Positions 818 to 63,400 of a DNA stretch of 64,000 nt are shown here, in pieces. The stretch covers positions 4,381,556 through 4,445,555 of the forward strand of contig CAJINV010000005.1 of NCBI GenBank assembly GCA_905178155.1, written 5' to 3'. The notes under the pieces were generated by a model, which was given only the letters and a program-made list of their open reading frames with translations, did not search any database and was not told the DNA's origin. Position numbers and translations under genes: made by a program. Each line of letters starts with the position of its first letter. Position 1 is the stretch's first letter. The DNA is from Amoebophrya sp. A120 (taxonomy: Eukaryota; Protista; Dinoflagellata).

Positions 818-2266
818 ATGTGGATGAACACGGAGCCTTTGTGGGTGGAGTTGAACGAATTGGGCGCCGAGACCGGGGCGGCCGATCCGAATTCGTACCG
901 CCGGCGGCAGCTGCTAACCTGGCGGTTGTCCAAGTCCTACGTGCTCTACTGCCTGCTCCTGCTCGTCGCCTCCACCTTTTTGCTCTTCTACAACCTGAAG
1001 CGGTGGGTGCAGTACGGCCACCTGCCCGAGTGGGACCGGCACGTCTGGGAGGAGTGGCTCGAGATTGGGATCACCGTGTGCCTCACCGCCGAAACCGCCA
1101 CGACGCTGTACCTGCTTGGCTTCCGGAAATTCATGCGGTCCTACTGGCTTCGGTTCGATCTAGCCGTTGTCGTCGTTCTCTGGGTGTGCGTCTTTCTCGT
1201 CGCGTATCCGCTGTGACAACCGTTGCGGCCTGATGTCGCATCATCAAGGTTTATCCCCATAGTGGTGTTCAGCTGTCTTGTACTCGAGAAAATAAAGACC
1301 TTTGTTGTGCAGTAGCGCACATCTTGTCAGTACTGTGATTGACCTAGATTTGCATTTTTGTTTCTATACTCTCTTGTTCCGTTGCTGCCGTTTCTTTAGG
1401 GGGGAGAAAATAAAGTTGTCACAAGTGATACCTCCGCGTCCAAGCTCGGGTGGGTATGGATTGCAAAAATGTCTGGGTCTGGAAACTTGTGATGCTAAAA
1501 TGTGGATGATGAAAACCGTTCCGAATGCAACACAGCATGACAACTTTCCAGAGCGCTCTCTCATAGGGAATCCGCATGAGAAACTGCGTTATTTCCGCGT
1601 GTACAAAAGATGCTGTGACTTTTGTTGGCTATGCCATACAGATTTCCTAGGTATGGAGAGCTAGCATTGTTACAAGTTGCAACCTTCCAGACCCAGACGT
1701 TTTTGCGTTTGATAGTGGGTGATGACCGACAAAAACGCCGAGACGAAGAAGCAAGAGGACAGCATGTTCGAGAATCTGGAGCTTCCATTTTTGATTCTCC
1801 GCTTCACGGTGCAACCCCTTCGTGTCGTGTCGCAGATCACGCAGCTGGTGCACCGCACGAGCACGAGTGCCGACGTGCCTACGACAATGCACAACTCCCC
1901 CTCCCCATCATTTGTATCATGGCATGAACAGCAATACGAGCGTCAACAAGAATGCATGTGTTGCATGACAAACTTGCACAGGAGTGTAGTGCTACTTGGA
2001 CAACTGCCAGAACTTCTCATTCGACCAGTTTGAAGAGGCAATTCGTGGAGTTGGTGCATTGCATTACAAACGAGGCGGAGGGCGAGTTGTGCATTCTCAT
2101 ATTTCCCGAGGTGGATTTCGCAGCTTTGTCCCGTTCGAGTAACACCGCCGGAGGGGTGGAAGTAGGACAGCAACTCCCGATGGGCCGCAGGGGAGTAGAC
2201 GGTATCAACACCTCATACGAAAGAGGACCCTACGCGGCTAACTACTCGCGACCGGGACGCGAGTAG
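818..2266 (+). CDS. Multi-pass membrane protein resembling a voltage-sensor (S1-S4) domain; multi-exon
   Basis: Hydrophobic helices and YWLRFDLAVVVV; GT-AG intron 1204-1425; removing 1455-1719 gives KLGWVMTDK...FLILRFTVQPLRVV. Last exon boundary uncertain. Confidence 0.55.
1455..1714. mobile_element. TIR introner-like element, family A (260 bp), TSD GTGGG
   Basis: TATGGATTGCAAAAATGTCTGGGTCTGGAA...TTCCAGACCCAGACGTTTTTGCGTTTGATA; GTGGG at 1450-1454 and 1715-1719. Confidence 0.9.
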
Positions 2267-2673
2267 GGACTCAGTGCTGGAATTGGTACAAAATGAAACG
2301 AATTGCTCTCTTGGTGCTAGTTCTTAAGTAGATTTGTCAGTCGTCTTCAGATGTCTGTAAAATCACACAACGCTGCTGCCACGTGCGAGAAGATCTTTAG
2401 CCAGGACTAAAATGAAACAAGAATTCGATCTGAATGCCGGCATCGCGATCAACAATCGTCAAGGAGGAGATTGAAGATTCAAATCGTCCATTCACATGAG
2501 GCTCCGCCATCAAATCGTGATCTCAGCGCTAAGTAGCCTTGTACGACGAACTTATGCTAAAACTTGATTTCCAACAGCGAAGTAAGTACTTTTGCAGAAA
2601 TGAGCTTCCTCTTTAGTAAACGCAAAAAAGGCCTCCACGTATCGGTTTCAAATAGCAACCACTTTTTCAATAG

Positions 2674-4231: not shown

Positions 4232-6281
4232 ATGAGTTCCTGCCGTCTCACCAACGAGCTCGACGGGAAGATGCTTCCGTATGTTTGCTTTGGTCGCATT
4301 GCCGACGCTCGGATTCTTTCTTCCGCCGGAGAATCCACTCCAGAAATCGCGCATACCTTCACGAAGCTGCTGACTGCAGCAAGGTAAGAGCGTTTTTGCA
4401 TCTTGCGGCCCCTCCTTGACACTATCAACAAAAGTCTTGGTTACAACACACCGCGGCTCGTAATTATATGTTTGCCACCTGTTGTTCACTTTTACTTTTT
4501 CGTTATCCGAAATAAACCTCGGTTCTTCATTTTTTTTCATCAGGTCCAAGATGAGCCCGGGGACGCGGATGCGGCTCCAGTGGAGCGGCGGTCTCGTTAT
4601 CCTGAGTAAAAACGTCCCCACACCATAGTTGTCATGCAGATTCGCAATGACAGGAACATTTGTAATGCGCATCTCCATGAGAGGCATTTCCAAGCGCGTT
4701 TGGGAATTTGTAATGCTGTAAACGGGATGAGCAGATGGATTTGTGACGCGACTGCACTTTCTAAACTGCACTACAATAGTACGGGCTGGAAGTTGTCATG
4801 CGTTGCTCCCAAAGCTCCTGGGTTTGTCTTGCTAAGTTCCCAACTTGACTATGGGGTGGGGACGTTTTTACATAGGATACTCGTGTGCTGCTTGCTAGAC
4901 GAGGAGGGGCAACTGCTGTACTCGCTCTATCAAATGCAAAAATGTCTGGGTCAGGAAGAATCCAAGTTTGTCATGCTTGTCTCGCATGACTCGAGAATCT
5001 GTGTTGCATAGGCACGAAAAGGCCCTCTTACCTGTCATGCAAAAACGCAGTTTGCCATGCGGAATACGTAAGACATGGCAGCTAAGAAATTTGTCATGCA
5101 TAGCTGCGTATTGCAGTGCGTCTATCATTCACTTTTAGCATTACACCCAGACATATTTGCATTTGATACGCTCGTAACGAGGTCGATTGCGTACCCAGAG
5201 GCACAGTCCTCAAAACTGCTGGAAGACCTGCAGGGCTTCGTACGAGCGGAGTTGGCGAAGAGTCCCGGGTTTTTGCACCAGCTCCTAGCCGAGGATGTTC
5301 CTTCGCCGGGTAGTTCTTCGACTGCAGCGTCTGCGCGCGGTACGGCCAGACCGAGTACTTCTACAGATGCCGCATCCAACACCTTAACCGGCACTGCAAC
5401 ATCAAGCGACAGCGTTCCGGGGGAGGAGGAGAGGGGAGCCACTGCTGCCGTGTTGTCGGGGGAGCCAGAAAGATCCAAGAAGTTGTGTTCTCCCAGGTCA
5501 GCGCCGTCCACAGCGGGTTCTACTTCGGAGGAACGGCAACCGACTTCATGGATGAAGGCCGAGACTTCCACACCATCAACTACAACAAGTTTCGGGGTAG
5601 TTAATACTCCACCACCGCCGCTGTCAGTTTGCACAGGAGACAGCGCGAAAAATGCCACTGGCACAAACCGACCCGCGGGTGGAGGTCCGACAGTATCTCA
5701 GAGCCGTATGCGGCGCCACATGCAGGCGCTGCTCCTGCAGTACGAGAACCCCGTGGAGGCGGCCCGAGTGTCGCGGCTGTTCGCAAAATCGGAGGAACTT
5801 CGGGAGACGACGCGGAACAGTATCAAAACCGTCGTTCGCAACGCGAACCAGATGCACGCCCTGGAAATTCGGTCCCGCGAGATGGAAGAAGCGTCGCAGT
5901 TCTTGGAGCAGCACGCAGTGAAGGTCAAGAAGAAATTCTGGTAAGTACGTGAAATATAACAACTGGGTTGCTTGATTCTCATTTTTTTGGATTCATTTTT
6001 CCGCCGGGATTATTACGTGGAAAGAACCAAAGCAAGAGCATCCTACATTTGACTCTAAAGCGCTTTGCTCAAGTAAGTTAGTAGTACCTTTAGAAGTTGT
6101 ACAATTCAATCTAATGAAAAGGTGGAAGAACAAGGCGATGCTGTTTGCGGGCGGTGCGGTTGTGTCCCTCTGCGCCATTCTGTTATTTTTCCACTTCGTT
6201 TACCCGCTTCTGCCAGCTTTCTTTCCAAACCAGCAGCCGGTCAGCAACGAGGCCGGTGAGGCACCAGCGGCAAGTGCATGA
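4232..6281 (+). CDS. Longin-domain R-SNARE (VAMP7/synaptobrevin-like), about 391 aa
   Basis: Exons 4232-4383, 4544-4597, 4885-4927, 5174-5940, 6122-6281 join in frame; SNARE coil ending KKKFWWKNK followed by a C-terminal TM helix; two GT-AG introns and two TIR elements. Confidence 0.8.
4598..4879. mobile_element. TIR introner-like element, family B (282 bp), TSD CTCGT
   Basis: TATCCTGAGTAAAAACGTCCCCAC...GTGGGGACGTTTTTACATAGGATA; CTCGT at 4593-4597 and 4880-4884. Confidence 0.93.
4928..5168. mobile_element. TIR introner-like element, family A (241 bp), TSD CGCTC
   Basis: TATCAAATGCAAAAATGTCTGGGT...ACCCAGACATATTTGCATTTGATA; CGCTC at 4923-4927 and 5169-5173. Confidence 0.93.
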
Positions 6282-7124: not shown

Positions 7125-8123
7125 ATGCCGGGAACGATTGTTTGTGCGTCTGGGTACTTTGACCCGATCCACTATGGGAGTGTGAGGATTGAAATTGACC
7201 AAGTTGAAACAGTTTGCCATGCATAAAATCGATACCAGTTGGGAGCCCAATTTCCACGCAGCGCATGACAAATCTCGGCACCGTCTGAATCCAGTTTGTG
7301 ATGCTGTTTAGGAACAGAGGGCGTCTCTTGTCATGCTACTTTAGCAGCTCTATCGCAGACCCCAAACAGGCGGACAGTCGGTCTCACTTAGAATCCCTGC
7401 AAGAGAGGCACTTCGTGCCTTGCAATTTATGCATGAGAAATTACATCAACTTTGTCGATTTCAATCCTGACACATCCATATCCACCCGGGCCACATCGAG
7501 TACCTAGAAAGGTCGAAATCGCTCGGGGACAAGCTGTACGTGATCGTGAACTCAGACAAGCAGGCGGAGATGAAGAAGGGCAAGCCCTTCATGAAGTGCG
7601 TGGATCGCCTGAAAATAGTCCGGTCGCTCGCCTGCGTGGACGCCGCCATTGAGGCGTGCGACGCGGACCGGAGTGTATGTGCTTCGTTGCGGATCATCAA
7701 GCCGGACATTTTCACCAACGGCGGCGATCAAAAGAACGAAGGTATTTTTACACTTAGGTTTCCTTGTTCTTTCATCGCTGTGGAGATGTCTTCATCGACG
7801 GCTGCACTGACATATAGTGCAACGGAGAGTCATCCCCGTCGCTGAATGTTTCATTTGTAGGTGAGAATGACCGCAGATGGTTCCTTCCTCAAGCCCGCAG
7901 CTAGTATCGAGAGCGACGTCGATTTTTAACAACATCAATTACGAAACATCATGAAATGGCTGCATACGTGATGATCATCGCAGGTGTGCCAGAGGCGGTT
8001 GTGTGCAACGAGCTGGGAATCAAAATGGTGGATGCTTTGGGGGACAAAATTAACAGCAGTAGCTGGCTGATTGCGAATTCTTTGGGGGAAGAGAAGGTGG
8101 TGAAGGCGGACCCCAACCAGTAG
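7125..8123 (+). CDS. Cytidylyltransferase-family nucleotidyltransferase (TagD/RibL-like), 147 aa
   Basis: Exons 7125-7172, 7486-7741, 7984-8123 give SGYFDPIH|PGHIEYL, IVNSD, KPDIFTNGGD and KINSSSWL (HxGH and SSS motifs). Confidence 0.88.
7173..7480. mobile_element. TIR introner-like element, family C (308 bp), TSD TCCAC
   Basis: TATGGGAGTGTGAGGATTGAAATTGAC...GTCGATTTCAATCCTGACACATCCATA; TCCAC at 7168-7172 and 7481-7485. Confidence 0.93.
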
Positions 8124-13428: not shown

Positions 13429-16400
13429 ATGACGTACTACCCGCTTGTCTCGATTATTGGCTGTTCTCTCTTTGTCGCCCTCGTGCGGCTTGTGCACTTT
13501 CAGTCGCGCCCCGGGGACCGCGCGATCCACTGCTTGGATCGCAGTAAATCACCCCCAGTAGAAGGTCCTGCACAAGCTGTCGCGAATGCACTTCCCCCGA
13601 ACGAACCACAGCCGGCGGACGGCACGACAGCGCCAAATGTTGGCGAGCCACCTCCTGCAACACCCTCCGCGACTGCTGCAACCGCATCAGTTGCGTCACC
13701 TACGAGCAGCACGCCAGAGCCACCGGCTACTACAGCGAACTCAGGGAGTAGAAGCACAAATTGGTGGCCCTGGTCGGCAGATTCATCGAAAGCCAGTACT
13801 AGTGACAACAGCAAGCAAGAAAATCCGGATACAATAAATAAAGTTGATGGTGGTTCCTCGAAGCCAGGGCAGGTGCCGGTCGCCTCGCTGCCGGACTACC
13901 ACAGTGTCGTCACCGATACAGGTTTCTGCCGCAATAGCGCCTGCTGCATCGGCAGTCTGGAATCGGACAAGGGGACGCGGCCGTCGACCATGCAGGGAAA
14001 GTGCCTAGACGTCGAACAGTGCGCCGCGAATGCCCGGCCTTTGATCGAGGGCCTGCGGCGGCCCCGGCGCTACGCCTTCGTATTGAGCTTCTTCGGGCAG
14101 GTGCCGCAGGAGCTGGACTTTTTGCAGCAGCTTCCGAGCATCCAGCGCGCCATCGGGCGCATGCAAAGCCAGAAGCCGGGGGCTGTCACGGTGGACGTTG
14201 TCCTGCTGATTCACCCGGGCCGGCAGATTGCCGCGCACTACAATCCGCTGGACAAAACGGCGATAAAGCACCTGCAGGCAAAGCACAACGTGAAGGTCCG
14301 ACGCGTGCCCTGGACCATTCCCCCGGGCGCCCGCTTTGACCGGGGCAACGAAGGGTGGTGCGGCGAACAGGATTTCATCCGCCTGCACGCCTGGAACATG
14401 ACGGACTACGATGCGGTCGCCTATTACGACAACGACGTCGAGCTCCGCGGCGACTATCTGCCGCTGTTTGAGTGCGTGGACGGCCTGGATGTGACTCTTA
14501 CCACGACTGGCGGCGTGGGCGAGCCCATCAACGTCGGGTTTTTCGCGCTGAAACCGAAGGCGAAGCTACTGGAGGCCGCCGTCCACTTCTCAAAGGTCGC
14601 GGGGTTCGAACCCAAGCGAGGCGGCTGGGCCGACGCAGGGTTCTGGCCGAACCAGTACTACTTCATCGGGGCGGAGTGCGGCCAGGGCTACTGGCTCACC
14701 ATGCTGTTCCGGCGAGACCATACCGTCGTGCGCGAGGCGTACCGAAAGGCCGGGCTGCCGCTAACCGCGGTGCGGGCGGCGTCCATCGATCGCTGTGTGT
14801 GGAACTACCAGCTCTCTTCCGGGTGCGACGCCATTGGCGGCGCGAGGTGCGACAAGGTCATCGGGCACCACAAGCCCGCCCGGGCCGGGTCCGACGACAA
14901 CGAGTGTTTGAAGAAGGGAATTCAACAGTTGTACCGGGAAGACGGGGTGGAAGGTCTTGTAGTCTCAAGACCTGCTGTTCTTGCGGCGATGAATACGACA
15001 GCTTCACTTAGTACCCCCGCGATGTTACAGTTGAAGGACTTCCTGCCCGCAAAGTATCTCCCAAGCGAGAAGCTTGCAGAGACTACGCAGCCGGACGCCT
15101 CTGCGGCCGTGTCGCTCGCAAACCTGAAAGAGTTTCTGTCGCTGGGTCCGCTTCCGCAGCGACTCCCGTGGCCGGGACAGTGGAAGAACGGGCTGCCCAT
15201 CCAGTGCAAGCAGCCGGACTGGCTGGTCCGCAAAGATTTGCTGTCGCTCGACGTGAACCCGCACAAGACCAGTCGGCGAGTGCGTGCGGTGCTCGTGGTG
15301 AGCGTGATAACGCCGAAGGGCCAGGAGGATTGGGGCGCGGCGGAGAAGCGGCCGCCGTTCCTGCTCACAATGCTCGCGGCGTCGCTGCAGCACCTGCGAC
15401 GTTTCGGCCATGGCCTGATCCTGCGGCCGGACTTCACCCCGCAGCTGGACGGCACCCACTTGCAGGCCTGGCAAAAGAAAGCCTGCGACCGGGAGAAAAA
15501 GGACGAACGGCAGTGCATGAAGGACATGCAGCGGGAGAACTTCAACTGGGAAAAGCATTTGATGCTGAACGACTACCTGCAGTTGAAGTTCGGGTCATCT
15601 GGTACTCCACCGGGTACTAGCGGGGACGAGGACTCGCAGAGGTTGTATCGGTTTACGCACGTGGGCATGCTGGACGCGGACGCCGCCTTCGTCAACTTTC
15701 ACCTGGACTCGCTCGGGATTCTCGCTTGGAATTTAGCGAAGACAAAAAAGCAGGTGTTCGTCGGGAACGAAGATTGGTTGCGGGGGGAGAGCGAAGGCGC
15801 GCTGCTTTCGCACGCGAAGCGCGCCAACGGCGGCCTGATTTTCGCCGCGAACTCCAAGTTTTCGCGCAGCCTGTTCACCGATACCTTCCAGGCTCACGTC
15901 CGCGGGAACGAACGCACCTCGACCCCCTGGACAACGGGCGGCATCTATCAAAATGAAAAATCCCCCCTCCCCATATCAAAACGGAAATTTGTGATGCTGA
16001 TTTGTGACCACAAATCCGCTTTGTATTGCACAGAGGCACTGCGGCCAGATCCCCAGGCTACGTAGGGGCGTATGGGTCTAGTAGTTCAGCATGGCAAGCG
16101 GGTCACTTTTAGGGCGAACAGCATGACAAATCGCTTCCATAATGGGGCGGAAGCTTCTGCCCTTGTCTTCTTGCAAGACAGATGCGATTTGTGACCTCAA
16201 ATCCGCAACGCAAATTTTTGGAAACATACCTTTTTAATATGGGGAGGGGGGATTTTTCCTCTCAATAGCATCGTGGCGCAATGTTCGTCCAACGAGCAGA
16301 TCTGTTTGAGCGACTTGATGTACGGGCCCCCGCGGACGCAGGCCGGGGCGATTTTCCCCATGCACCGGTATTTTCTCCTCGGATCGGGGAAGTTTTGGAA

Positions 16401-18748
16401 CCGGGGCCGCGCACCACAGGCGCCCACGGTGCCGCTTCCGGACCACCAGCTGCACGTCATGCACTACATGGGAGGCGGTCGGCAGCAGGCGGTCGCAGAT
16501 CTGTGCGAAAATACGTACATTGCGCAGGCCATCGGCGAGAGCGCGCGCAACGTTCTCGGGGTTTGCGGGCAAAGAGTAAATCCGCCAATCAGCTGCTCGA
16601 GCCATCCCGATTCCCTCCTCCTGGCGAATACGGATGTTTACCCGAAAAAGACAGCGGAGCCCCAGGACCCCTGGAGCGGTCTAGTCGTTGATGCCAACGG
16701 CACAAATAAAAATACGCTGGTCCTCGCGCCGGGGAAAGTAGAGGCTGCGGCCCAACAACCCCCACTGGAACCCGGGGTCACCACACTGCCGCCAGCGGAA
16801 GTGAAAAAATCCGGTGCAACTGTTGAGACGGCCCCCGCCGCGCCCAACGTAGAAGTAGTACTCACGACGGCTGCCCCTGCGAACCCAAGCGCAGCTGACG
16901 ACCACGCGGACGGTACAAAAATCAAGAACGCCGCCGGGGCCGGACCGCTTACCAAAAAATGCGGTTCCGGGCAGCCCCCGACAGAGGCGTGCAGATTGCA
17001 GTACAGCTGCTGCGACGTGCAGAACTGGAGCTGCTGCGGGGAGGATAAGTTTGTCGTGCAGCCGAGGCGGGCCTTGCGGAACACGACGGCCGTGGGGTTT
17101 TACCTGCACGTCGGGGGTCGCGGCGAGTCCGCGGCGGTCACCTACCTGGCTTCCCGGGTGCTGTATTTCAACCCGGGCGCCCCCATCTACATCATGTCGG
17201 ACGGCGCCGAGCAGTACGAGGACTTCTGCCGCGAGCTGAGCCAAAAATTCGACTCAAAGTGCATCGCAGTGTCGTGCCCGTCCGCGGAGGACCGGTGGCA
17301 CCCGTGGCCGTTCTTCAAGCGGTTTCGCGACGTGGCGGTGGCGCTCCCGGAGGTCGAGTATCTGGTCATGCTGGAGCCCGACAACACCCTGCACTCGGCC
17401 GTGGACGTGAGCACGTTCACGCACGACGCGGGCGGGATCCTGGACCACAACGGGAACTTTGGGGAAAGCCTCGTCCAGTATGGGGAAAGCCTGGCGCAGC
17501 AGCTCCCGGGCAAGGAGACGTTCAAATGGGTCTACAAGGGCACGTATCAAGTGCAAAAATGTCTGCGTCTGGAAGGATGTAACCTGTGATGCGCATTTCA
17601 GAACACACAAAAATCTCTCATGCATAGGTAGCAAAAGCTGCCCACTTTCTGTCACCAAAATGGGGGACTTGTCATGCGTGTTCGGCATTGCGGAAGCTTG
17701 TCGAAACCTGTGATGCTAGAGCTTCCATGCCAGACCTTCTGCGTCATGCAGAAACAGCATGACTCTTCCAGACCCAGACATATTTGCATTTGATAGCACG
17801 GGGCTCGCGGGCGGCAGCTACTACCGGCGCACGGCGATTTTGGATGCGTTCGCGGACGAGGTGGCTCAAAAAATGGACTGGAAGAAGATCTACAAGCTGG
17901 GTCCCAGCGCCGCGGTCTACTCGTCCGACTTTGCGATGCCGATCGCGCTCGCGTTCCGCGGATGGACCTACGCGCCCTGGGGGGCGGTGCGCCAGGCCTA
18001 CGGGTCGAATCCCGACCCGACTCAGCCGCAGCGGAACGTCTCCATTATCCACTACAACCGCGACATCACCGGCGGGAAGCCGGCAACGCGCATCCGCTTG
18101 TCCGAAGCCGCCAAGGCGGAGGCCGGGGCGTCCACGACCACCGTGGGGCAAAGTCGGGAGGTGAACGCGGCTCCACCCGCACCACTTCCGGCGGACTGGA
18201 TGCTGTCGGTCGTGCGGGCCGGGAGGCGGGTCCGCGGCCCCAAGGAGGAGTGGGCGCGGCGCGCGATCAACATCTGCCAGATGTGTTGGAATCGGGAGGA
18301 GTACGTGCGCCGGTTCGGCACGGAGGTGTGCGCACCGAAGTACAGCTTCAACTACACCGCGGAGATGATACCGAAGGACGCGTATTGTGAAGAAAAATCC
18401 CCCCTCCCCATACCAAAACGGGATACTTCTGAAAATTTGTGATGCTGATTTGAGGCCACAAATCGTCTCTGTATTGCAAGAACGCATATCCAAAGATCTG
18501 GCCGCTTTCGGCAGGCAATTTGTAATGCTGTATGGCCTAGGGAGGACATGCCTGCCTTGCTAGGCCCCTACAGCAAAACGGCCCTACTCCAGCTTTGTAT
18601 CTGTGTGCAGTCCTCTACTGCAAGACAAATCCGATCTGTGTACGCAAATTCTTCATCACAGACTTCCACTTCGATATGGGGAGGGGGGATTTTTCCTTTT
18701 GATAACGCGAGACCCGGGCCGGCGGGGGCGATACAGCGGATGCGATAA
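13429..18748 (+). CDS. Large type II membrane multi-domain glycosyltransferase (GT8-like, GT34-like and a third GT-A-like module), about 1469 aa
   Basis: N-terminal TM helix; FIRLHAWNMTDYDAVAYYDND; MLDADAAF...NGGL...NEQ; VMLEPD. One continuous frame after removing three TIR elements. Confidence 0.7.
15946..16267. mobile_element. TIR introner-like element, family D (322 bp), TSD GCATC
   Basis: TATCAAAATGAAAAATCCCCCCTCCCCATAT...ATATGGGGAGGGGGGATTTTTCCTCTCAATA; GCATC at 15941-15945 and 16268-16272. Confidence 0.92.
17545..17795. mobile_element. TIR introner-like element, family A (251 bp), TSD GCACG
   Basis: TATCAAGTGCAAAAATGTCTGCGTCTGGAAG...CTTCCAGACCCAGACATATTTGCATTTGATA; GCACG at 17540-17544 and 17796-17800. 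Confidence 0.93.
18383..18704. mobile_element. TIR introner-like element, family D (322 bp), TSD ACGCG
   Basis: TATTGTGAAGAAAAATCCCCCCTCCCCATA...TATGGGGAGGGGGGATTTTTCCTTTTGATA; ACGCG at 18378-18382 and 18705-18709. Confidence 0.92.
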
Positions 18749-19575
18749 TACGTATCGACTCTATCGATCACGCTGTGCACGAAAGTTTACCGATCTTTTC
18801 GTGGAACCTCTGAGGCGTATATGAAAGAACTTTTGCAATGTGCGTCATGATCTTCACGCAGGCTGTCGATAGCAATGTCGCAAAGATGAGATGGTGCACA
18901 ACTTTTGCATAGGATAACCACTTTTACAACAGCATTCATATAGGAAAAAACCGTCTGCGATGGTTCCGTCGCTTCTGTGCTGCCAGAAGGAATTTGAAGT
19001 GTTCGTGTGTCCTGCGGCTTCTATGGTCGGTTCATAATAGATACTTAGTATCGGTGACGAGACAGCCTTTGCCTTGTTGCAGCAAACTTTCCTGGTCGGT
19101 CAACGTCCGTGGTTTTTTTTGTACAGAAAAGAAGAATTAGAATTTGCATATGCATAATTTCCCTCATCGGTTTCGTTCTTCCACTTTTTCGTGCGCTGTG
19201 GTTTCTGATGATTTTTTCAAGACAAAATCGTTTTCAATTTTTTCAAGTTCGTCGTCCGTCGCCGTCGTTGTTCGTTTTTAGACAAGCACATGCTCCTTTT
19301 CGGGACACTCTGAACTAATTTTTTTGTCTTCGGAAAAAAAAGAATACAATCGCAGCTACTCCCCTCAGAAGTTATAAGTAGATTATGTTTGGACCCTGTA
19401 AAAAGTAAACCCGCACTTCTTTCATCGTCTGGAAGATTATCGGAAAGTTGAGTAAAGATCTCGGCGCTAACTAAAGGTCACGGTATCGTCACTTTACGAC
19501 ACCACTTGTTGCCTCAGTTGCAAATAACTTCGAAGCGGCAGTAGACCTAGTACTGTCAAGAAGAACAGAACAACA

Positions 19576-21226
19576 ATGGCACACGTCGAGCGCATATCAA
19601 ATGTAAAAATGTCTGGGTCTGGAAGAATGCAACTTGTCATGCTAAATCTGAAGCATTGAAAAATCTGTGTTGCATGATTGCCAAAAGTGGTCCAGTTTTG
19701 ACCAAGTCGGGAGGGAGTTTCTCATGCAGGGTAGGCATGAGAGAGATCGCGCAGAATCTGTCATGCTAGGTCCTGCATTCCAGACCTCGTGTGTCATGGA
19801 AAAGCTGCATGACAAATCTGACAATCTTCCAGACCCAGACATTTTTACAATCCATAGCGCAAGAAGCGACCGCTAGATGAGCATCTGGTGACGCTTCTCC
19901 AGACCGCAGACCCGCCGACGCGCGAGGAATACGCAGTCAAGAAGGTCGAGCTCGCACGAAAAATGGACCGGTTAGAATTCGTGTCCAAGGCCCGGATGAA
20001 GTTCATCAAGAATCTGCACGAGAACAACGAAAAGAAAGTGGACGCCATCCTGTGCCGACCACCGGGAAAACTTGCGGAAGTACTTACTACAACACCCTCC
20101 GTCGATGGGTTTACTTTGTTTTTTTTTTGTACGTGAGCTGCGCTCCTGGGTATTAATTAGTTGGTACATCCTTCTCGATGAAGAGCAGAAGCCTGTGTTT
20201 CGCTGCAGGCTCTGAGCGTTGCAACAGATGAATTCATTGGAGTACTATAGCTATCGAGTCAAAATGAAAATCGTTTTCCAGGTGTCTAAGCAGGGACTTG
20301 TGCAGGCGGACGCTTTATTTGAGACGCTGAAGCAGGATGCGCTGAAGAAGAAGTCGATTCCAAAACGGCTGGATATCGTCCACAATTACTGCGTCCATCT
20401 GGAAGTGCAGCAGAGCAGAGGTATTTCGTCCACTTGCGGTTTTGAATTTCCTGCAGTCACTATTATAGACGAGTTCGTTTTGCATCGTACAACATGCAAG
20501 GGAACTACTTATCGTGTTTCTGTTTGAGTATGACTACACGATAACTAAGAATTTCCTGGATCAAGAAAAATACATCAAGAGGACCAAAGCACCCCTTGTT
20601 AGAAGAAATGCAAACGAATGACGAAGCGAATGCAGTAAAACCACGCGACCACAACAGGCATGCAAACGCCGGATCAAATGGATCCCTTGCCATCGCCGGA
20701 GTTGTTTCAGGACATCAATTTTATGGACATGAATCCCACCTACACCGACTTGTTGAACAACGAACCCTCGCCGTTTAAGCCGGCGGATGGAGCCACGCGC
20801 GACCCGCTCCTCGCCGTCTGCTTGCTCCTATGAGAGTGAGTGTACTACAACTCCCCCTCCCCCTCTGTCATGCGAAAACGCAATTCCATTTCCAGCCACT
20901 GCCTCACATCGCTATCTTGCATAACGGACTTGGGAATCCAAACAGTACTATAATAGTTCGCACGCATTGTAATATAGTGATTTGTCATGCAGATGCCACT
21001 TTTCTGAGTCTGACCTGATCTCTATTGCTGTTCTTGGCTCCTTCAAATGAGGGGGAGAGGGAGTTGTGCTCACTGATAGCTCCAGCCGTACACGCCGCCA
21101 CCGCAAATCGTCGAGGCGCAGCAGCGGGCAAAAGCACGCGCGGTCGAGCAAGTGGCCGAGCAGAAGCGCATCGAGAAACTACTCGCGCGCAAGGAGAAGG
21201 AGCGGTTCGCGGCCCTAACTGCGTGA
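19576..21226 (+). CDS. Hypothetical helical protein, multi-exon
   Basis: MAHVER|KKRPLDEHL after removing the family A element; three GT-AG introns; AVCLL|QPYTPPPQ...FAALTA* after removing the family E element. Confidence 0.55.
19595..19856. mobile_element. TIR introner-like element, family A (262 bp), TSD GCGCA
   Basis: TATCAAATGTAAAAATGTCTGGGTCTGGAAG...CTTCCAGACCCAGACATTTTTACAATCCATA; GCGCA at 19590-19594 and 19857-19861. Confidence 0.93.
20829..21078. mobile_element. TIR introner-like element, family E (250 bp), TSD GCTCC
   Basis: TATGAGAGTGAGTGTACTACAACTCCCCCTCCCCCTC...GAGGGGGAGAGGGAGTTGTGCTCACTGATA (TIR with an indel); GCTCC at 20824-20828 and 21079-21083. Confidence 0.85.
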
Positions 21227-21938
21227 AGCAGGACGTTAGTTGTATATATTCTCTAGTTGATGTTGAGACGAGGAATCTATATGTAGTTTAATTGAGTTTG
21301 AGTAAGTTAGAAGTAGAAGAGCTCCAACCCAGTATGTGTGCCCAGGTCATTTCGCACAGCCCCTCGCATCCCATTCATTGCTGAGATCCTGTTACAAATT
21401 TCTACAAAAAAACTGTACCCCATTTTTTGTTGTTAGAAATGTTGGATCCCTAAATCATACGGACATTAAAGTGAGACGTGCTTTTTCCGCGACAACCCAC
21501 GAGGCTCTACTTCTCTCGGATTTTCCCTTTTTACACTAAACCAGTTCCCTTTTAAAACGAGTCAAAAATAATTTGCATCTGCACTGAGGCAAGTATCTCA
21601 GCAAGTGCAGGCATCAGTCATTTGCATTTTTAAGCGAGTCACGTGTAAGCATTCGGGATTTTGGGGACTCCCACAGCGGAGGTCAATGCAGTGCCATCAA
21701 AAAAGAAGGACTTTGTCATGCTACATAAGCATCAACTCGAACGGATCTGAAAACCTTGTACACCAGTTTGTCAAATGTCATGGTAAAGCATCAACACACG
21801 AGCAGCGCAGACCACGCCTGTAAGGAGGCACAGATGCCAAAGGATCTACGCATGTCGAAATTGGGCACGAGATGACGAAAACAGCTTATGAATGTTGTTC
21901 GACATCGTTCCGATTAGGTAGCACAATAAATCGGTCAA

Positions 21939-22160
21939 GATCCAGCTTCTCGCGTTCGTCGCAAGAACTCAGTGTAGTAGCAAGCAAAAATACCTCCATC
22001 CCTCTACCTGATCCAATCAGAAGTATATCGAGATCACCATTTTCTTGAAACGCTGTACGTCTGCCCAGCGCATCAAGCAGATCTTGATAAAGCAAAAGGC
22101 GATCTGACAAGATTGAGTTCTCGATCCACAGCAAATCTTGTTAGCTCTTCACCAAGGATC
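21939..22160. promoter_or_regulatory. Intergenic GATC cluster upstream of NOG1 (function unknown)
   Basis: GATC at 21939, 22010, 22032, 22080, 22101, 22123, 22157. Confidence 0.3.
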
Positions 22161-22492
22161 GTCGAGGCCAATAGATGACGTATCAAATTGCTCTAGGGCG
22201 ATGTAGACAAGCCAAATTATCGAATGCTCACCGACCTAAAAATGGTTTTTTTGAATATCACAAGCCTCTGCTTTTATCAAAAAACAGAAAGGACAGACTG
22301 CAGTCCGGCACTGGTCAGTAGTAAGAAAGAAAAGCGTAAACACTTATTTGCACCGCATTCAGCCACTGCCGCTCTAGTCTTTACGTTTGTCGAAAGTTCA
22401 GCTGTTGCGTAGAAAATAAAGAACTAGCCGGAAAATAAATTCTAGTTGCCTTTGTTCTTTCACTTATTTTTATCTAGAATTGATACAGCAAC

Positions 22493-31167: not shown

Positions 31168-31642
31168 CGACGCCTCGTGTGGGATGTTCAGAATTGTACT
31201 AGCAGTAGCTGTCTACCACTACACTCGTCATCACTATGCAGGAACAATCGCTGTAGACCGCTGGTGTAATGGCTTTAGGCCGTTGAAAGAAATATATCGT
31301 GGTACTGGTAGTTGTTGTAAAAACGCGTCGTGCACTACTACTCACGTTTCTATCGTGTAGACATGGGAATAAGCGGCGTCATCGTGTATGTGGGCGGGAA
31401 TTGGTTCGTCATCGTGTACGGAAAGTTTCGGATTTTTCAAAGTCCTGTCGTCTCCACCTTGCGGTATAACTTTTACATTAGAAGAAGTGTAGAAGGACCT
31501 GGATTAAGAAAGCGTTTTTTTTGAATTGGCTCCGGGGGATTTATTTTTCTTCGAAACATGCCCATCCCGCAAATTCGATATCTATAGCTCCGAGCACGGC
31601 ACCTGACGCCTCGCGGCTACGTGTAGGAAACGAGTTTATAGG

Positions 31643-45216: not shown

Positions 45217-46238
45217 ATGTCTGGCTCTACGAACCCTCTGATAGCAGCGGACTGGATTCCCTGCAGACGCGACGAATGGCGGCTGAACAGCCTTCGGGTG
45301 CAAGAGTATGAGCATCTTGTGCGCGCACGCGATCCACAAAACGGGCTTCGCTTTTCCTACGCGGAAGGGGACGTCGGGAGTACTGCTGCGGAGAACAAAT
45401 CGAATCCGAAACACTGGCGGTGCCAGTGCCAGGGAATCGTGGGAGAGATGACGATAGAGATGGAAAACGTTGAAGTTTTCTTCATCAGCGGAGACAAGAC
45501 GTGCTTCTTTCGAGGTGACTTGCGGGCGGAGTTCTTGGATCCCGAGAACATGGCGACTGCTGCACGCGTCGACAGCCTCACACACGGCGTCTACCGCGGG
45601 CCGGTGGATCTGTGTGTTTTCGAAGCCGAACTGGGAGAGGCGGAACCTCCGGGCCGCGAAGAGGACACGCAAGATGTAGTTAAAACCGCTGTGTTTCTCC
45701 GCGTAAGCAGTGCGACGAGCGGGCTCTTGGAGTACTGGACCACTGCAACGCCTGCGCGTCTGAACATTACGCATCTCATATCCTATGTAAAAACGTCCCC
45801 ACCCCAGAGTCAAGATGGAGATTTTGCAACACAAACCTTGAAGTTTTGGGAATCACGCATGACAAATTGCAGGCTGTAGTGTAGTGCAGTTTATTAAGGG
45901 AAGCCGCATAACAAATCGATCTCTTTATGCTGTTTACAGCATTACAAGTTCCAAAACACGATTGATAATGCCCCTCATGGGATCGCGCGTTACAAACGCT
46001 CTTGTGCTTGCAGATCTGCATCACAACTCTGGGGTGGGGACGTTTTTACTCAGGATATCTCAACACGTACCCGCACAGCAGAGCAGCTGAACAGCAAAAA
46101 TCTTTCGACGGATTATTGTCCTCTTCTCCGCCCGGCGCGGGGGCTGGGTCACGAGCGTGGTACCGGGTCGAGAACAAGAAAGTGCTCCGCACCAAATTAT
46201 ATCGTCGGAGCACAGCCGCTGGCTACAATTATACGTGA
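45217..46238 (+). CDS. Hypothetical protein
   Basis: GC-rich frame; ITHL|NTYPHSR join after removing the family B element; stop at 46236-46238. Confidence 0.6.
45779..46057. mobile_element. TIR introner-like element, family B (279 bp), TSD TCTCA
   Basis: TATCCTATGTAAAAACGTCCCCACCCCAGAGT...ACTCTGGGGTGGGGACGTTTTTACTCAGGATA; TCTCA at 45774-45778 and 46058-46062; inverted relative to 4598-4879. Confidence 0.94.
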
Positions 46239-55559: not shown

Positions 55560-57756
55560 ATGTCCGCCGCGCCGTCAGTCCGAGGGGCCCTTCTAGCCTT
55601 GATATCCTGAGTAAAAACGTCCCCACACCAGAGTCAAGTTGGGGATTTTGCAACACAAACCTTGAAGTTTTGGAAGCCACGCATGACAAATTGCAGGCTG
55701 TATTGTAGTGCAGTTTAGTAAGGGAAGTCGCATTACAAATCCATCTGCTTATCCTGTTTACAGCATTACAAGTTCCAAAACACGAGCGGGAATGCCTATC
55801 ATGGGGATGCGCGTTACAAGTCTTCCTGTCTTTGCAAATCTGCATTACAACTCTGGCGTGGGACCGTTTTTACTCAGGATACTTGAATGTGTTGATCTAT
55901 CTCGTTCTGTACCGGCTGAAGCAGTCTGAAATATCAAAGTGAAAAAAGCCCCCACCCCATATCGGAAACCGAAGATGCGCGAATTTGTGATGCTGTATTT
56001 GAGTACACAAATCGACTTGTATTGCTAGAAGGCCAAGAGACGAAGCTGCGGCCTAAATTGCAGGCAATCTGTCTTGCTGTTTCCCAATTCCAGTTGCCTC
56101 CTGTCATCCTGGAGCTGCAAGGCTTTCCCACGCTGGACAGCACTACTGTCCGCATCTTTTGCCTTCTAGCATCACAAAGCTGATTTGTGACCACAAACCT
56201 GCATCACAGATTTCCGTTTTGATATGGGGAGGGGGCATTTTTCATTGTAATATGAAACGAACCTGGTGTTGTGCACCCTAGAAACGCCGAAAGGGGCCGC
56301 GGCCAGTATCTCATCTGCCGGCGGCGGTGCTGCGGTTGGTACCGCGACTGCAGGGACACCACCTGCAACAAATATTAGTACTACAACAAAGAGTAGTACT
56401 CTGGCTGCAGTTCATCTTCCAGCAGAGAGCACGAAGGCGCCGGCGATCGGAGGTGCAGCTGCGCCCACTTTAATAGAGCAAGAAAAGAATGCAGCTCTGC
56501 AAGAAGCTACAACAACGACAGCAGCACCGGCGGTTGCCGCAGGAATTCCACTTCGAGACGCGGCGACAGCTGCACCGCGGTTCAACATTACTTTTTCACA
56601 GGCGTCGAAGGAGTTCGTGCCATGTACGCGCGCGTCGCAGAGTCAAAGCTCGCGGCCCGGCACGCCGTGCATGCCGCCCGCGAAGCGCTACCCCTACAAA
56701 AGCTGGACGCCGTGGCGTGCGGAGCTCGGGGAACGCATTCTCGCCGCGGTCACGCCCGAGGGGGCTGAGGCGCTTGAGAAGAAGTGCAACGGGTGGACGT
56801 TGTTTGGAGACAGCACCTGGTGCAACAAAGCCGTGAAGCCGGAAAACTGGAGCGGAGTTCCAGGTACTGCAGTCGGCCTGTCTTTCGGGGTGGAGGAGCG
56901 GGATCTGTGGAGCGAAAAAATGAGTAATTGGTTCAAAGTCCCCCTGGTGCAGCTGTTCGATTGCTTCCAGGACCCCGGGAAGTCGCCGGCGCTGACGGGG
57001 CGGGCGAATCCGCCGGCGGACACGGGGGAGTGCAACGACAACGGACCGCACTGCTATTCCGGGCGGTACGAGGGCTACCAGGTCTGCCTTTCCGAACCGG
57101 CTAGGGATGCTATCACGAAGGTGAAGAAGATTGAGCCAGGGACTTCGCTGAACAGCACGGGCATCTACCAATTTGTGCAGGGCGACGAGTCGAGGGAGCT
57201 CGACAGGTGGCGACGGAACTACACGACCTTGTCGAACGTGCTGGAGCACTGGCGGCAGCGACCACCGGTCGCGGTGCCTACTAAAAGTGTTAATACTCCT
57301 GCAGTTGTTGAACAACCTTCTGCAGCCGCTGGGAAAAATGATTCGAATCCGCCGGGAAGCAAACCTAAGTTGTCGGTCTTTTTGAAGATTGATGTAGAGG
57401 GGTCCGAATGGGGTGTGTTAGAAAAACTTGCAGCGCCGGAACACGAGATGGATCGAAACTTGATTCGGACACTGGACATGGAGGTGCACTTCGGCAGCAA
57501 TACCGATCCGCGCAAGAAGGAGTTCGGCAATAATGCCAAGGGGGGCATCAGCTTCGAAGTGAGCATCCTGGAGCGGTTGAGGAAGTACTTTTATGTCACC
57601 GGCTCCACTCTCGAGGTGTATCGAGAAGGCTGGCACCCGGACAAGGACTGTCCACAGAGTAACTGCGATGAGCCGATGCTGCACTTGGCGGGGGGCATGG
57701 GCATGGCCGCCTTTGCAGTCAGCTACGTTAACAAAGCGCTCGTGGACGGAAGTTAA
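55560..57756 (+). CDS. Type II membrane SAM-dependent methyltransferase (FkbM/METTL24-like)
   Basis: The TM anchor GALLAL|NVLIYLVLY and SE|TNLVLC appear after removing two elements; LSFGVEE, FLKIDVEGSEWGVL, LDMEVH. Confidence 0.75.
55603..55881. mobile_element. TIR introner-like element, family B (279 bp), TSD CTTGA
   Basis: TATCCTGAGTAAAAACGTCCCCAC...GTGGGACCGTTTTTACTCAGGATA; CTTGA at 55598-55602 and 55882-55886. Confidence 0.94.
55932..56252. mobile_element. TIR introner-like element, family D (321 bp), TSD TGAAA
   Basis: TATCAAAGTGAAAAAAGCCCCCACCCCATATC...GATATGGGGAGGGGGCATTTTTCATTGTAATA; TGAAA at 55927-55931 and 56253-56257. Confidence 0.92.
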
Positions 57757-58314: not shown

Positions 58315-59628
58315 ATGGCGCTCCACAACAAGAATAAGATGCGGTTCGAATTCGTGTACCGAGGCGCGAGCTCTGTTCTGGACCTGGACACGACAGAGTT
58401 CGTGATGGCGGCGACGTGTAACGCCGAGACGGACGCGGTATCAAATGTAAAAATGTCTGGGTCTGGAAGAGTGCAAGAGTTGTGATGCAGGTTTTCCGGG
58501 ACACACGAGGTCTGGAATGCGAGACCCAGCATGACAGATTCTTTGAGGTCTCTACCATGCCTTTCCTGCATGAGAAACTCCCCCGCAATACTTGGTCAAA
58601 AGCGGACAGCTTTTGGCACTCACGCAACACAGATTTTTGCATCATTCAGATTTAGGATGACAAGTTCTAATCTTCCAGACCCAGACACTTTTGCATTTGA
58701 TACGCGGCCACGGTCGACGACTTGGTGGCCTGTTTGGATGAGGAGCTGGAAAAGGGGTTCCAGCTGAAATCCACATATCAACCGCAAATATGTCTGGGTC
58801 TGGAAGGTTGGAACTTGTGACGCTAACTTTGGACTCTAAAAGAATCTCTATTGCATGACCAGCAAGAGGAGTCTAGTTTGTGCTACGCGGGGAGGCATTT
58901 GTCATGCGGCGTAGGCACCATCAGGAAGCCCTCTAAAAATCTGTGATGCTAGGTTGTGCATTACAGACATCCTGGGTCATGCAAAATATGCTGAGAAACC
59001 CGGCAACATTCCAGACCCAGACATTTCTGCATTTGATACCACACGGCTGACCACCAACAAAGATACGTCCGACGAGCGCATCTGGTTGGGTTTTTTCCCG
59101 GTGGCGGATCTGCTCGCTGCGGGTGGTCCGGTATTTGTGGATGTGGAGCAGGTTGCGCCCGGTAGTGGAGCTGCTGCGACCGGCTTTCCACGGTCGGCGG
59201 CGGCGCGTGCAACCCTGAATGAGGGTCGTGCGCCGCAGAACTGTCTTGACACCACGCCGGCGTCTTCCAAGCAAGTCCAGGCAGGAATGAACAACGATCA
59301 AGAAGGAAACGCCGAAGATCATCCGCGTGGAAAGAACAACTACAACACCGAGGTGAATGGCGACAAGAAACCGGCGCTGCCGACTTTTCTGCAGGAAATG
59401 GGAAAGCAAATGGCCGAAACGGTGCTGAAGCAGCAAAATGTTAAGGAAACTGTGCTGCCGCACTTACAAGACCTGGCGACGGGGGACCCCAGCAAGCTGC
59501 AGAACATGCTCGAGAATCACCCCATGCTGTCGCACCTGCGTGGCCAGCTGTCCGACCCGGACAAACTCCAAAAAATGCAGCAGCGCATGCAGGAACGGCT
59601 GCAAAGCCTGCAGGGCTCTGGGGCGTGA
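58315..59628 (+). CDS. Hypothetical protein with a C-terminal STI1/DP-like repeat
   Basis: ETDA|ATVDDLV...QLKST|RLTTN joins after removing two elements; DPSKLQNMLENHPML...DPDKLQKM. Confidence 0.6.
58439..58702. mobile_element. TIR introner-like element, family A (264 bp), TSD CGCGG
   Basis: TATCAAATGTAAAAATGTCTGGGTCTGGAAGA...TCTTCCAGACCCAGACACTTTTGCATTTGATA; CGCGG at 58434-58438 and 58703-58707. Confidence 0.94.
58776..59038. mobile_element. TIR introner-like element, family A (263 bp), TSD CCACA
   Basis: TATCAACCGCAAATATGTCTGGGTCTGGAA...TTCCAGACCCAGACATTTCTGCATTTGATA; CCACA at 58771-58775 and 59039-59043. Confidence 0.93.
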
Positions 59629-60473
59629 AGGGTTCGATAGAAAGACTCTTTTTATATCCTGCGAGCGGGCTGAGCACGTGACGATGTGGCGAATATGCAA
59701 ACTCATGTTACTGACGTCACAAACTGGTGCGTAAAGTGGTTTATATTTTCGAGTTTTTCACACAAAAAGAAAAAATAGGGTACGGCTGATGAAAAAGAAA
59801 AGCAACCAAATGCATCTGAAGGCAGAAGAGCCACGACTTGCTTCTTGAGCGTACTCTACAATGTAGGATATCTCCAGCTGTGAGTTGTCATTGCCATTTG
59901 AGTGAGCGATGCGGGAAATAACAGAGCGATGCGCGAGAAGATATTTAGACGATCGGAGGGAGAAAAATGAGAGCGATCGAGTGAGCGTGGTGCAAGAGCC
60001 CGGTGCAAAATAATCGTCAGAGAGCGAGTTTTTTGGAAATAAAAATGTTTTTCGAAACGGTTTTCACTTCGTGCGTCATTTTGCAATGGCTGTGACTGAT
60101 CTCTGGAGGAGTCGGTTGCTGCATATGCTATTTTTGAGTCTATCTCAGCTTTTTTCTTTCTCCGCCAAAGGGCACACTGCCAACATCATCATCAGCTTTT
60201 TTCTTTCCGATCAAGCAACAGGAACGAAGATCTCCATGGATCAATTTTGCGCCCATTTATTTGGGTTTTTTTGGAACTTTATTACTCCCCATGAGTTCAT
60301 TCCCCTTGCCTCCGGCGATCATTTTTTGTGCTATTTTTCTTGAGGCACTATTTCATTGGATTTTTGTCTCCACTTTCACACACTGACTCTTACAATTTGT
60401 GATTTTGCCGACCCCGCCCCTTTTCTTTTTCCCCAATTGAATATCCGTTCGCGGATTTTTGAGGGACTATAAA

Positions 60474-63400
60474 ATGAGATCATCGACCTCGTCGCTTTCA
60501 ACGCGGTCAACCGCCTCCTCGTCCGCTCGGGGAGCTGGAGGCACTAGTCGTATCAATAACTTTTTTGACGGGGATCGCGATCATCGTGTTGAAACGGCTG
60601 ACGCAAGATCCGACGGTGGGCTACACCTATCGGGGTCGAAATCCTCTTCCACAACATACCAGACTCGCACAGCTGATGTACAACTTTGCAAGACATACAC
60701 GGGGAATGATCATAGTACAAGAACCGGGTCGCCGTCGCTCACGCTTCTGGATATTGACGACGAGGAAATAGCGCAGCTGCAGCGCGACATTTTTTTCGGG
60801 AACGCAAGCAACGAAGCCCGGCCTCAGATTCGGCACCGTCTAAGCAGCGGCCATGCAGGCGCCCGAAAAACCGACCAGGAGGGGTACCGCACAGCGGGCA
60901 AGAAGGTTTATTCCGGAACCAGTCCGACGTCTCCGCTTAGCTCGAGTCCAACATCTCCCACGACCGCGACGACCGCGCCGAAGAGCTCTGGGGTCAGCGC
61001 GTCAACAAGTGCTGATCAAGAATGTTGGTTACTGGCGGAGCTTGTCGATGCCTCCGAGCACGCTTACTCTAATTCCAAATACACAGCACAGGAACTGGAA
61101 GTCATGCGTGGGCATATTCGACAGCAGCTCGCAAAGGACAGTGACGAGGACGAGGACTTGTGGAACTACGGTGCTTCCTCTGAGGCTGATACTAGTGCCG
61201 CTCTCTCGCGTGTGAAGCGGAAAAATGCACTGCTGATGCGAAAGAAAAAGGCACTGCGCTTCCGCTGCCTCTGCATCCTCGCCTACACCGGGTTTTTGTC
61301 GTTCCGCTGCGATCCCGTGTTCTCGCGGGAGATCACGGAGAGCACCTGGAAATTGCTTCTGATCACGGTGGAGTTGGCGAATGGCATCTTTTTCCTGTTG
61401 GACACACTGGTGGTGCGTCGGCTAATCTGGATGACATCACATCAAAACGATTTTTTGGTGGCGCACCAAGCAGGACGAGGTCGTATGTTTAATACAACTG
61501 CGCTGCCCGAGCCGAAACCGAATTCGGTTTTATTTCCTTGGATCTCCTGGCCGGAAGTCGTGGAAGTCTTGCTCCTCTTGGGCGCCACGCTGACGCAGTT
61601 GTTTTACCTCTTCGTTGCCACGCCCGCGACCAGCACGCGGAGCGACGCGTTTTTCCTCCAAGTGCTCGCTTTGCTGTGGCTCGTCCGCGTGCGCATCCCG
61701 ATCCAGGCACTGTTTTTCCAGAAGACCCAGGAGCAGAAGGAACTGCTGGCGTTTCGCGACTTTCTCAAGACGCTAACGGGCGGCCAAGGGGACGGGCAAT
61801 CGAATAGGAACAAAGGTAGCCCTCGCCCGAGAACAAGGACGTTGAAAAGTACGAGCACCTCCAAAGGACGAGGGCCGTCCTCGTTGGCGACGCGAGTTTC
61901 CTTGACGAAGATATTTTCCACGATTGTGTGGAGTTTTCTTCTGTTCGGCATTCTGTCGTACGTGCTGGCGCTCTACGTGGCCATGGAGTACAAGCAAAAC
62001 TACGAGGCATTCCAGCAGTACAGCAAGATGTCGGGGTGGAACTCAACGAAGCGGTTTGGCACGACGACGCGCAGCTTCGTGCAGTTGACGCGCGTGGCCT
62101 TCATGGATACCCGCGTTCTGCACGACGTGGTCCGGCACGCCCTGGGCTGCTACCCGTCCTTGGGGTACATCTTTCTGTTCCACTTTTTTCTCTGCGGGTT
62201 CGGTCTGTTGAATGTCATCCGAGCGTCCGTCGTCAGTTACGCCGGCGTAAAGACCGCCGTCGAGGAATTGGAAATGCGAAGCAGCCAGTTCGGAAACAAG
62301 CCCACCGACGCTAACAGCGGACACTTGCAGAAACTGGCCGAAATTTACGATGTTTTCAAGTTTGTCGCGGAGAAGAAGCTAACGCGGTTTGCGCTCCATT
62401 CAAGTGGTGGCACTTCTCTGGATGTGGACATGATCATTGACAGCAGTAGTTCATCTGAGGAACACCACTCGCTCTCGTCTTCAGCCTACGAAGCCCGTAT
62501 AAGAAGTCGGAACAAACAGACGGAGGCTGCCCGGCGACTCAGACACAGCAGTAGCAGTCGCGTGCTTCAGGCCTCGCGGATAGTTACGTCGTCTGCAGGT
62601 CGTGGCCCGGGCGCCTTTGCTCGGAGTAGATCCTCTCCTATCGGAGTGAAGGAAGTGGCAACTACTACGTCCTCTGGAGCAGCAGGAGCGTTCCAGGTCG
62701 CTGCGAGGTTAGCGGCAATTCCAGAGGAAGCGCGTCGGGAGTACGAGAAAGGTGCTGCTCGGTGCATCGGTGTGCGGAATGTCGTATCGAAAGGAAAAAT
62801 CCTCCCTCCCCATATCAAAACGGAATTTCTGATGCTGGATTTGCGTACACAAATCAGGTTTGTATTGCAGAGAGGCACTGCGGCCAGATCCCCAGGCTAG
62901 GTAGGGGCGTACGGGTCTAGTTGTTCAGCATGGCAAGCGGCTCACTTTTAGGCCCAACAGCATGACAAAGCGCTTCCATAATGAAGCGGAAGCTTCTGCC
63001 ATCGTCTTCTCGCAGAGGGGGGATTTTTCCTTTTGATATGTCGTTCCCATGCCACCAGACGTGAAAATTCAGATATGGCTTGCTCAGATGTTACAATCTC
63101 AAACGTTACAATAGAATCTGAAATTTGTGTTGCATGAACAGCATGAATACCAAAGAGAGACTTGGGCTTTTCGCAATACAAATTTCGGCAGATCTCCATG
63201 CGGTTTGGAGTTCCGAAACTTGTCATGCGCGCTCCTGTGGGAGTAGGCCAGATGTTGTGCATTTTGCAACACAAATTCTAGATTCTGTTGTAACGTTTGA
63301 GATTGTAACACCTGAGCAGGTTATATCAAAATCGCTTTCATTCTACCATCGGAGATGCCCCCTCTTGTGCGCGTCCCCGCGCGCAGCTGTTTGTGCGAAG

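Follow-up and report, generated by a model that had tools for sequence, protein, structure and literature searches.

In the algal parasite Amoebophrya sp. A120, Farhat 2021 (PMC7789003) reported 66,565 RNA-seq-supported introns, more than 60% of them non-canonical, and 29,850 repeated introns with inverted repeats (IRs) starting with TAT, of the form TAT, 7 nt and an A-run, and direct repeats (DRs) of 3-5 nt. Gene models of this organism were built from transcript alignments, non-canonical sites being allowed; U2, U4, U5, U6 and nearly all spliceosomal proteins were present, U1 small nuclear RNA (snRNA) was undetected, and the text of that study left the splice position of the elements open. 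A survey in PNAS 2025 (PMC12130899) classed the A120 introner families as terminal inverted repeat (TIR) DNA elements. Here we analyzed 64,000 nt of A120 (contig CAJINV010000005.1, positions 4,381,556 to 4,445,555 of the forward strand; hereafter the window), in which an earlier sequence-only reading, made without database searches, had described 22 mini-transposons acting as precisely removed introns. Our results indicate that these elements are introners of the published class, and that annotated proteins, at the junctions examined, lack exactly the element plus 5 nt whatever the state of the flanking repeat. A ruler-type removal guided by the paired ends is, overall, very probable.

Two annotated A120 proteins fixed the identity of the window. 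Exon 2 of the NOG1 gene is 100% identical to the protein annotated from A120; this protein, P0001 (694 aa), aligns exon by exon to 22493-26141, and a second one, P0121, aligns likewise to 818-2263. Because both map exactly, the window is A120, and its elements are the introners already in print (PMC7789003), observed here again. The Amoebophrya link drawn by the sequence-only reading is thus exact and not a mere resemblance, the same elements having been published with RNA-seq support. The published and the present elements have in common the organism, the TAT start and A-run, IR and DR, the hairpin and the many families, as well as a mean length of ~240 nt, coexisting GT-AG introns and RNA-seq support. 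In the window, the IRs consist of a TAT start, ~7 variable nt and an A-run, clear in families A, B, D and E and weaker or absent in C, F and G. The core of the family A TIR, used as query, returned 149 metagenome loci (L001-L149) from a near-identical organism, with exon identity of 100% to an A120 protein in one comparison. Relatives at 74-96% were found among these loci for 21/22 window elements, 20829 having none at that cut-off, and thousands of contigs were aligned, indicating that the elements are repeated in the genome. In this larger sample, 327 elements were called without using the repeat, and a boundary repeat in the size range of the A120 introners (3-5 nt) was found, identical at 5/5 positions in 251 of them. 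No difference in kind from the account given in the text of PMC7789003 was apparent; DRs there are 3-5 nt, whereas here they are strictly a 5-bp target-site duplication (TSD). The class, the organism, the TAT ends and a 5-bp example are already published. Beyond that account stand two new details: the register of the cut, bracketed to 3-4, and a TGTNWTGC motif that recurs inside the elements of every TIR family at a spacing of 31-33 bp. Neither was found described in a literature search that covered Farhat 2021 apart from its figures (Fig. 3, S19-S25), which may bear on the question, and 40 of the 58 A120 rows of supplementary file 8 of PMC12130899; the other 18 A120 rows, two files of the same supplement and the 2023 Current Biology paper on dinoflagellate introners lie outside this scope and may likewise bear on it.

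Deleting each element plus 5 nt left an open frame across the join in 22/22 cases, as previously claimed; this is partly built in, since the deletion rebuilds the pre-insertion sequence. Annotated proteins lack exactly the element plus 5 nt at 7/7 junctions examined, five in the window (1205, 1455 and 1880 in P0121, 22678 and 23763 in P0001) and two in locus L025. "Removed from mRNA" is in this respect second-hand, through transcript-based gene models. For the 22 elements first described, the evidence from beyond the window is thus a protein for three (1455, 22678, 23763) and an RNA contig, on one side, for two (18383, 22678). At the NOG1 joins, homologues were ungapped in 102/108 cases at 22678 and in 107/108 at 23763. 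An RNA-type contig omits the GT-AG intron 25538-25816; one RNA-type piece stops at 22672, just 5' of the left repeat, beyond which 203 of its letters are unplaced; another has 44 letters ahead of its start at 18705, where the right repeat lies. These ends are consistent with exact removal, only the junction-side halves being displayed. The use of nearby GT-AG sites instead, which the sequence-only reading had regarded as fatal to its claim, was seen neither at the NOG1 joins, where homologues are ungapped, nor at 1455.

A hairpin with a short repeat is a known substrate for template-switch artefacts. Reverse-transcriptase switches across hairpin and repeat, in genes that are dead or spliced at nearby GT-AG sites, could draw on the presence of both structures here and on some in-frame GT..AG pair within 30 nt in 21/23 elements. 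However, two elements have no such in-frame alternative, the nearest GT-AG alternatives would not yield the ungapped NOG1 joins, and elements occur once per 2.7 kb in conserved genes. Moreover, the join is exact at 1205-1430, although only 2/5 of its repeat is preserved; repeat identity thus does not define the join, and a template-switch origin appears extremely unlikely.

All 22 elements were recovered, with the sizes (150-322 nt) and family counts given before (A9, B3, C2, D4, E1, F1, G2). A scan for a perfect TSD plus TIR found 20/22, with 20-23 of 25 TIR matches, and five order-3 Markov shuffles gave 0 hits at >=19 TIR matches. The remaining two were 20829-21078, whose TIR has a small indel, and 63074-63325, whose repeat is 4/5; the duplication is perfect in the other 21, so that the 5-bp repeat assigned to every element needs this one correction. 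Ends read TAT in 43/44, with TAC in one (28382), as stated earlier. Every element has stops in all three + frames, so read-through is excluded, as the first description held. All 22 are real, and two had been missed, 1880-2101 and 1205-1430, because their flanking repeats have decayed. The statement that all lie within coding sequence (CDS) holds with 37217 at its very end. The 24 elements and the two genes with annotated proteins are as follows.

818-2266, + strand: Ion_trans-domain gene, P0121 (241 aa); all three introns are elements
1205-1430, + strand: old TAT..ATA element, previously missed; TIR 13/16, repeat 2/5, no internal motif; P0121 lacks 231 nt, register 3-5
1455-1714, + strand: family A element with a perfect 5-bp TSD; P0121 shows the exact join despite a GTAT..ATAG alternative
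1880-2101, + strand: family F element, previously missed; one end reads TAC and the repeat is 3/5; register 0 is incompatible with P0121
4598-4879, + strand: family B element inside a synaptobrevin-domain gene
4928-5168, + strand: family A element in the same synaptobrevin-domain gene as 4598
7173-7480, + strand: family C element interrupting a cytidylyltransferase-like domain at its start; the Pfam profile resumes at position 10
15946-16267, + strand: family D element in a long open reading frame (ORF)
17545-17795, + strand: family A element in the same gene as 15946; a GTAT..ATAG alternative would add one codon
18383-18704, + strand: family D element; RNA-type contig piece starts at 18705, 44 letters placed elsewhere
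19595-19856, + strand: family A element; join frame open
20829-21078, + strand: family F element, small indel in TIR; a DNA-type contig runs across it unbroken at normal depth
22493-26144, + strand: NOG1 gene, identical to P0001 (694 aa); interrupted by five GT-AG introns and two elements
22678-22827, + strand: family E element in NOG1, joined exactly in P0001; RNA-type contig piece stops at 22672
23763-24024, + strand: family A element in NOG1, joined exactly in P0001
28382-28637, + strand: family A element inside a SHIPPO-repeat gene; one end reads TAC
33167-33404, + strand: family G element; join frame open
36869-37174, + strand: family C element; join frame open
37217-37478, + strand: family A element at the stop codon; the last repeat base is the T of TGA, at the very end of the CDS
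45779-46057, + strand: family B element; join frame open
55603-55881, + strand: family B element; join frame open
55932-56252, + strand: family D element; join frame open
58439-58702, + strand: family A element; join frame open
58776-59038, + strand: family A element; join frame open
62785-63038, + strand: family D element; join frame open
63074-63325, + strand: family G-type element; repeat 4/5, the mismatch silent in protein

Ordinary splice sites did not account for these joins. A GT or GC donor with an AG acceptor, as expected of U2-type introns, was reached by sliding the junction in 0/22 window elements, in line with the original claim; off the slide, and invisible to it, 1455 and 17545 each offer a GTAT...ATAG alternative in frame, whose use would add one codon. 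In the larger sample, sliding to GT-AG was possible in 8/167 elements and to GC-AG in 2. Repeat identity among the 327 elements was 5/5 in 251, 4/5 in 42, 3/5 in 15 and <=2 in 19. Family A elements lie with transcription in 49 cases and against it in 47, with 6 ties, using a strand model that was correct in 30/32 window blocks. From these repeat counts, the 49:47 orientation and the 8/167 GT-AG cases, it follows that the join is set neither by repeat identity, nor by orientation, nor by splice dinucleotides. The flanking exon bases have no fixed letter.

Decayed target duplications are natural markers of the position of the cut. In register 4, the left repeat copy is kept at positions 1-4 and the right copy at position 5. 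The annotated peptide at 1205-1430 results only from removal of 231 nt in registers 3, 4 or 5, and 1880-2101 rules out register 0. At L025:7766-8007, where position 5 is mismatched, P0122, also an annotated A120 protein, has an Asp that registers 0-4 give and register 5 does not. Since the first junction allows 3-5 and this one 0-4, the register is 3 or 4, if one register holds throughout. We infer register 4 over register 3. At register 4 the intron starts with N-TAT and ends with ATA-NNNN, 4 nt past the hairpin and without AG, and N-UAU matches the GUAY donors of the host at +2 to +4. Host donors are GTA at 22/23 listed positions (GTAT 11, GTAC 6), five of the 23 being backed by P0001 and the rest called by eye, with one coordinate mis-set. 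In Table S4 of PMC7789003, the nine predominant A120 sites all have T second, and A25 sites begin with TT, the A25 IR beginning with TTA. A frame was assigned with confidence to 148 of 309 insertions; their phases were 72/44/32 (p 0.0002), that is 49% phase 0 under register 4, a bias left unexplained by target base preference (p 0.002-0.012). Repeat position 5 was mismatched less often than position 1 (5 vs 18; 2 vs 10, p 0.04); a looser cut gave 4 vs 11 (p 0.12). This comparison was post hoc and was not used. In the exons next to 15 non-silent mismatches, Pfam detected no conserved domain that spans a junction. Ordinary donors in the window being nearly all GTA, their consensus is unusually narrow.

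End-to-end pairing was predicted for 24/24 elements on both strands, with 15-29 of 30 pairs, and folding z values were -5.6 and -9.8. An Rfam scan of the window at gathering threshold gave 0 matches, leaving group I, group II or other self-splicing RNA unsupported. Hairpin-guided removal by a retuned U2-type spliceosome has, in our judgement, an even chance of being correct. In such a mechanism, the 25-30 nt inverted repeats would pair within the pre-mRNA, the first cut would fall one base 5' of UAU, N-UAU serving as a host GUAY donor in which G+1 is relaxed, and the second cut would fall four bases beyond the 3' AUA, AG not being required. The symmetric ends would supply an identical signal in both orientations. 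Identity, the 5-bp TSD, orientation independence, removal of element plus 5 nt, independence of repeat identity and register 3 or 4 are established here or second-hand; to these the mechanism would add the use of the hairpin in vivo and spliceosomal chemistry. Introns derived from TIR elements in Fritillaria provide a precedent (PMC11282704, PMC13326754): like those of A120, they are described as derived from miniature inverted-repeat transposable elements (MITEs), TIR-bearing and non-GT-AG in mass, with GT-AG introns kept. Their splicing is ascribed to a modified U2 spliceosome; their preferred ends are AG-AC and AG-AT, whereas A120 acceptors are without sequence.

The sequence-only reading had instead proposed a second excision pathway beside the U2 spliceosome. 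Its end-defined part stood (MITE-type elements with 5-bp TSD, removed without GT-AG as element plus 5 nt in either orientation); the separate pathway was not established, and the N-UAU that register 4 would give, being like host GUAY donors, argues no less strongly for a retuned spliceosome. A spliceosome-independent route, with a hairpin endonuclease and ligase or a transposase-derived enzyme cutting at fixed distances from the stem, would resemble that of Euglena. In euglenids, separate machinery and circular products have been proposed for nonconventional introns (PMC12501133, PMC11282704), which share with our elements TIR-paired ends, TSD-like repeats, a rule of spacer length in which the 3' spacer is the longer one, and a proposed MITE origin; they differ by a CAG/CTG code and a purine at the start of the exon, where we find TAT/ATA and no exon-base rule. 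The euglenid code N3-CDG ... CH'G-N5-6 | R is absent from the elements, and paired ends of the euglenid kind are predicted in 24/24. The lack of a fixed acceptor sequence, the function of both orientations, the AG ignored at 1455 and the 3' spacer, 3 nt longer at register 4 much as in Euglena (3 nt vs 5-6 nt), would suit such a pathway. It leaves unexplained, however, why N-UA matches the GUA donors of the host in A120 as well as A25, and why U1 went undetected, and it comes with no candidate enzyme and no Euglena CAG/CTG code. We regard it as possible, with the chances against it.

Several points weigh against register 4 and against a hairpin-guided spliceosome. The register rests on two annotated junctions and on the assumption of one fixed register, and the L025 junction further assumes that the A120 reference and the metagenome locus share the repeat state. 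Table S4 positions may reflect aligner convention. Among 29 imperfect repeats, a codon-likelihood test put register 4 ahead by only 2-3 log units, its register-1 value including an arbitrary stop penalty. No displayed read crosses a junction. The last two bases at register 4 are random, and the perfect GTAT...ATAG intron available at 1455 is not used by the annotated protein, both unlike spliceosomes that read AG. An RNA-wobble test gave no pairing selection (G-U 250 vs A-C 267), and of 546 ends, 8 deviate at the first T of the terminal TAT, 3 at the A and 9 at the last T, frequencies that for all but the A come near the repeat-decay rate; single changes in the ends are hence tolerated. Post-insertion constraint on the terminal TAT was weak, in a test from which 20/293 pairs with a repeat of 2/5 or worse had been dropped beforehand. 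The terminal three pairs were predicted open in 4/24 sense folds, and a stable stem would make UAU and the U-run inaccessible to snRNAs.

A stricter form of the retuned-spliceosome mechanism, in which only N-U-A is read at the 5' end, four bases are counted past the hairpin at the 3' end, the acceptor has no sequence, tens of thousands of transposons are so excised, and a single integrase-type transposase reading a helically spaced TGTNWTGC array mobilizes every TIR family, is tentative and falls somewhat short of probable. If true, insertion in either orientation would be scarless. Register 4 together with lariats would mean that the spliceosome picks a 3' site by structure alone, with no AG; otherwise, a new RNA cut-and-join activity would be at work. 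Either outcome would explain the harmless invasion of exons by transposons.

The motif common to all seven families, TGT[ACG][AT]TGC (TGTNWTGC), occurs at 15.3 per kb inside elements vs 0.4 outside in the window, and at 14.9 vs 1.4 in the metagenome loci. Copies of it are most often 31-33 nt apart, a spacing that ranks first or joint first in 10/13 clusters, and all copies in family B run in the same direction. Because of this spacing and of the one-way copies in family B, the motif reads as a double-stranded DNA site, likely for a transposase. Exact removal persists in two old elements that have 0 and 1 motif, from which we infer that the motif serves transposition and not removal. Helical phasing between the motif and the end of the element was unsupported (R 0.27 at 10.5 nt).

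Excision at the DNA level in expressing cells, as for internal eliminated sequences of ciliates, would have transcripts copy an empty site. The motif, arrayed in one direction in family B and spaced by 31-33 bp, looks like a site in double-stranded DNA; this and the absence of an RNA-pairing signal would agree with such excision. On the other hand, a DNA-type contig crosses 20829-21078 unbroken at a depth of 41.7 vs ~45 (contigs drop rare variants), other contigs run into element ends, and removal remains exact with 0 or 1 motif, making DNA excision very unlikely.

Judged from their sequence, the TA..TA ends and the 5-bp repeat would point to an integrase-type transposase, which would bind the shared TGTNWTGC sites and insert copies either way round. 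IS3EU/GingerRoot elements also have TA..TA termini, but make 6-bp TSDs, a repeat length found in 0/327 elements here, whereas the 4-5 bp TSD of Ginger2 is compatible with 5 bp (PMC10045372). Neither is reported as introns in the account of PMC10045372, and integrase-type DDE (aspartate-aspartate-glutamate) chemistry is the likely mover. In PMC12130899, A120 family 38 is listed as "Ginger, 5-bp TSD, TA/TA termini" with integrase-like ORF homology, most A120 families are 'Unknown', and automated TSD calls range over 2-6 bp. Nine TIR pairs >400 nt had no transposase-like ORF (one ORF scanned by Pfam), and no TIR match was found in viral contigs.

Element length is flexible, with other copies of 457-1104 nt having perfect repeats. 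The family C-type element at L018:505-1608 measures 1104 nt and is GC-rich in its interior, and its open frame of 238 codons is without Pfam match; at L065:3991-5021 a family B element is nested within a family A element. The element at L025:7472-7725 has a TIR of only 13/25 and a perfect repeat, and is still excised exactly in P0122. Within the window, the two G copies have the same TIR type and different interiors. The interval 21594-21979 has a 5-bp repeat but a TIR of 11/25 and no relative, and was rejected as an element; five further weak TAT..ATA pairs (11/16) are at chance level. The surrounding 21550-22300 is AT-rich and intergenic, with one copy of the internal motif, a chance-level 5-bp repeat and no relative. 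Runs X9 and X10 contained repeats only (68 and 3 reads) and were uninformative on the window genes. RNA reads of run X9, from another isolate, match only family A interiors in 15800-35799, at 90-95%; as their flanks differ, related elements lie at other sites in that isolate. All recognized window genes are on the + strand. A 58-nt internal family F fragment without ends (39864-39921) lies at the start of a GT-AG intron, which suggests that element copies decay where their removal is not needed.

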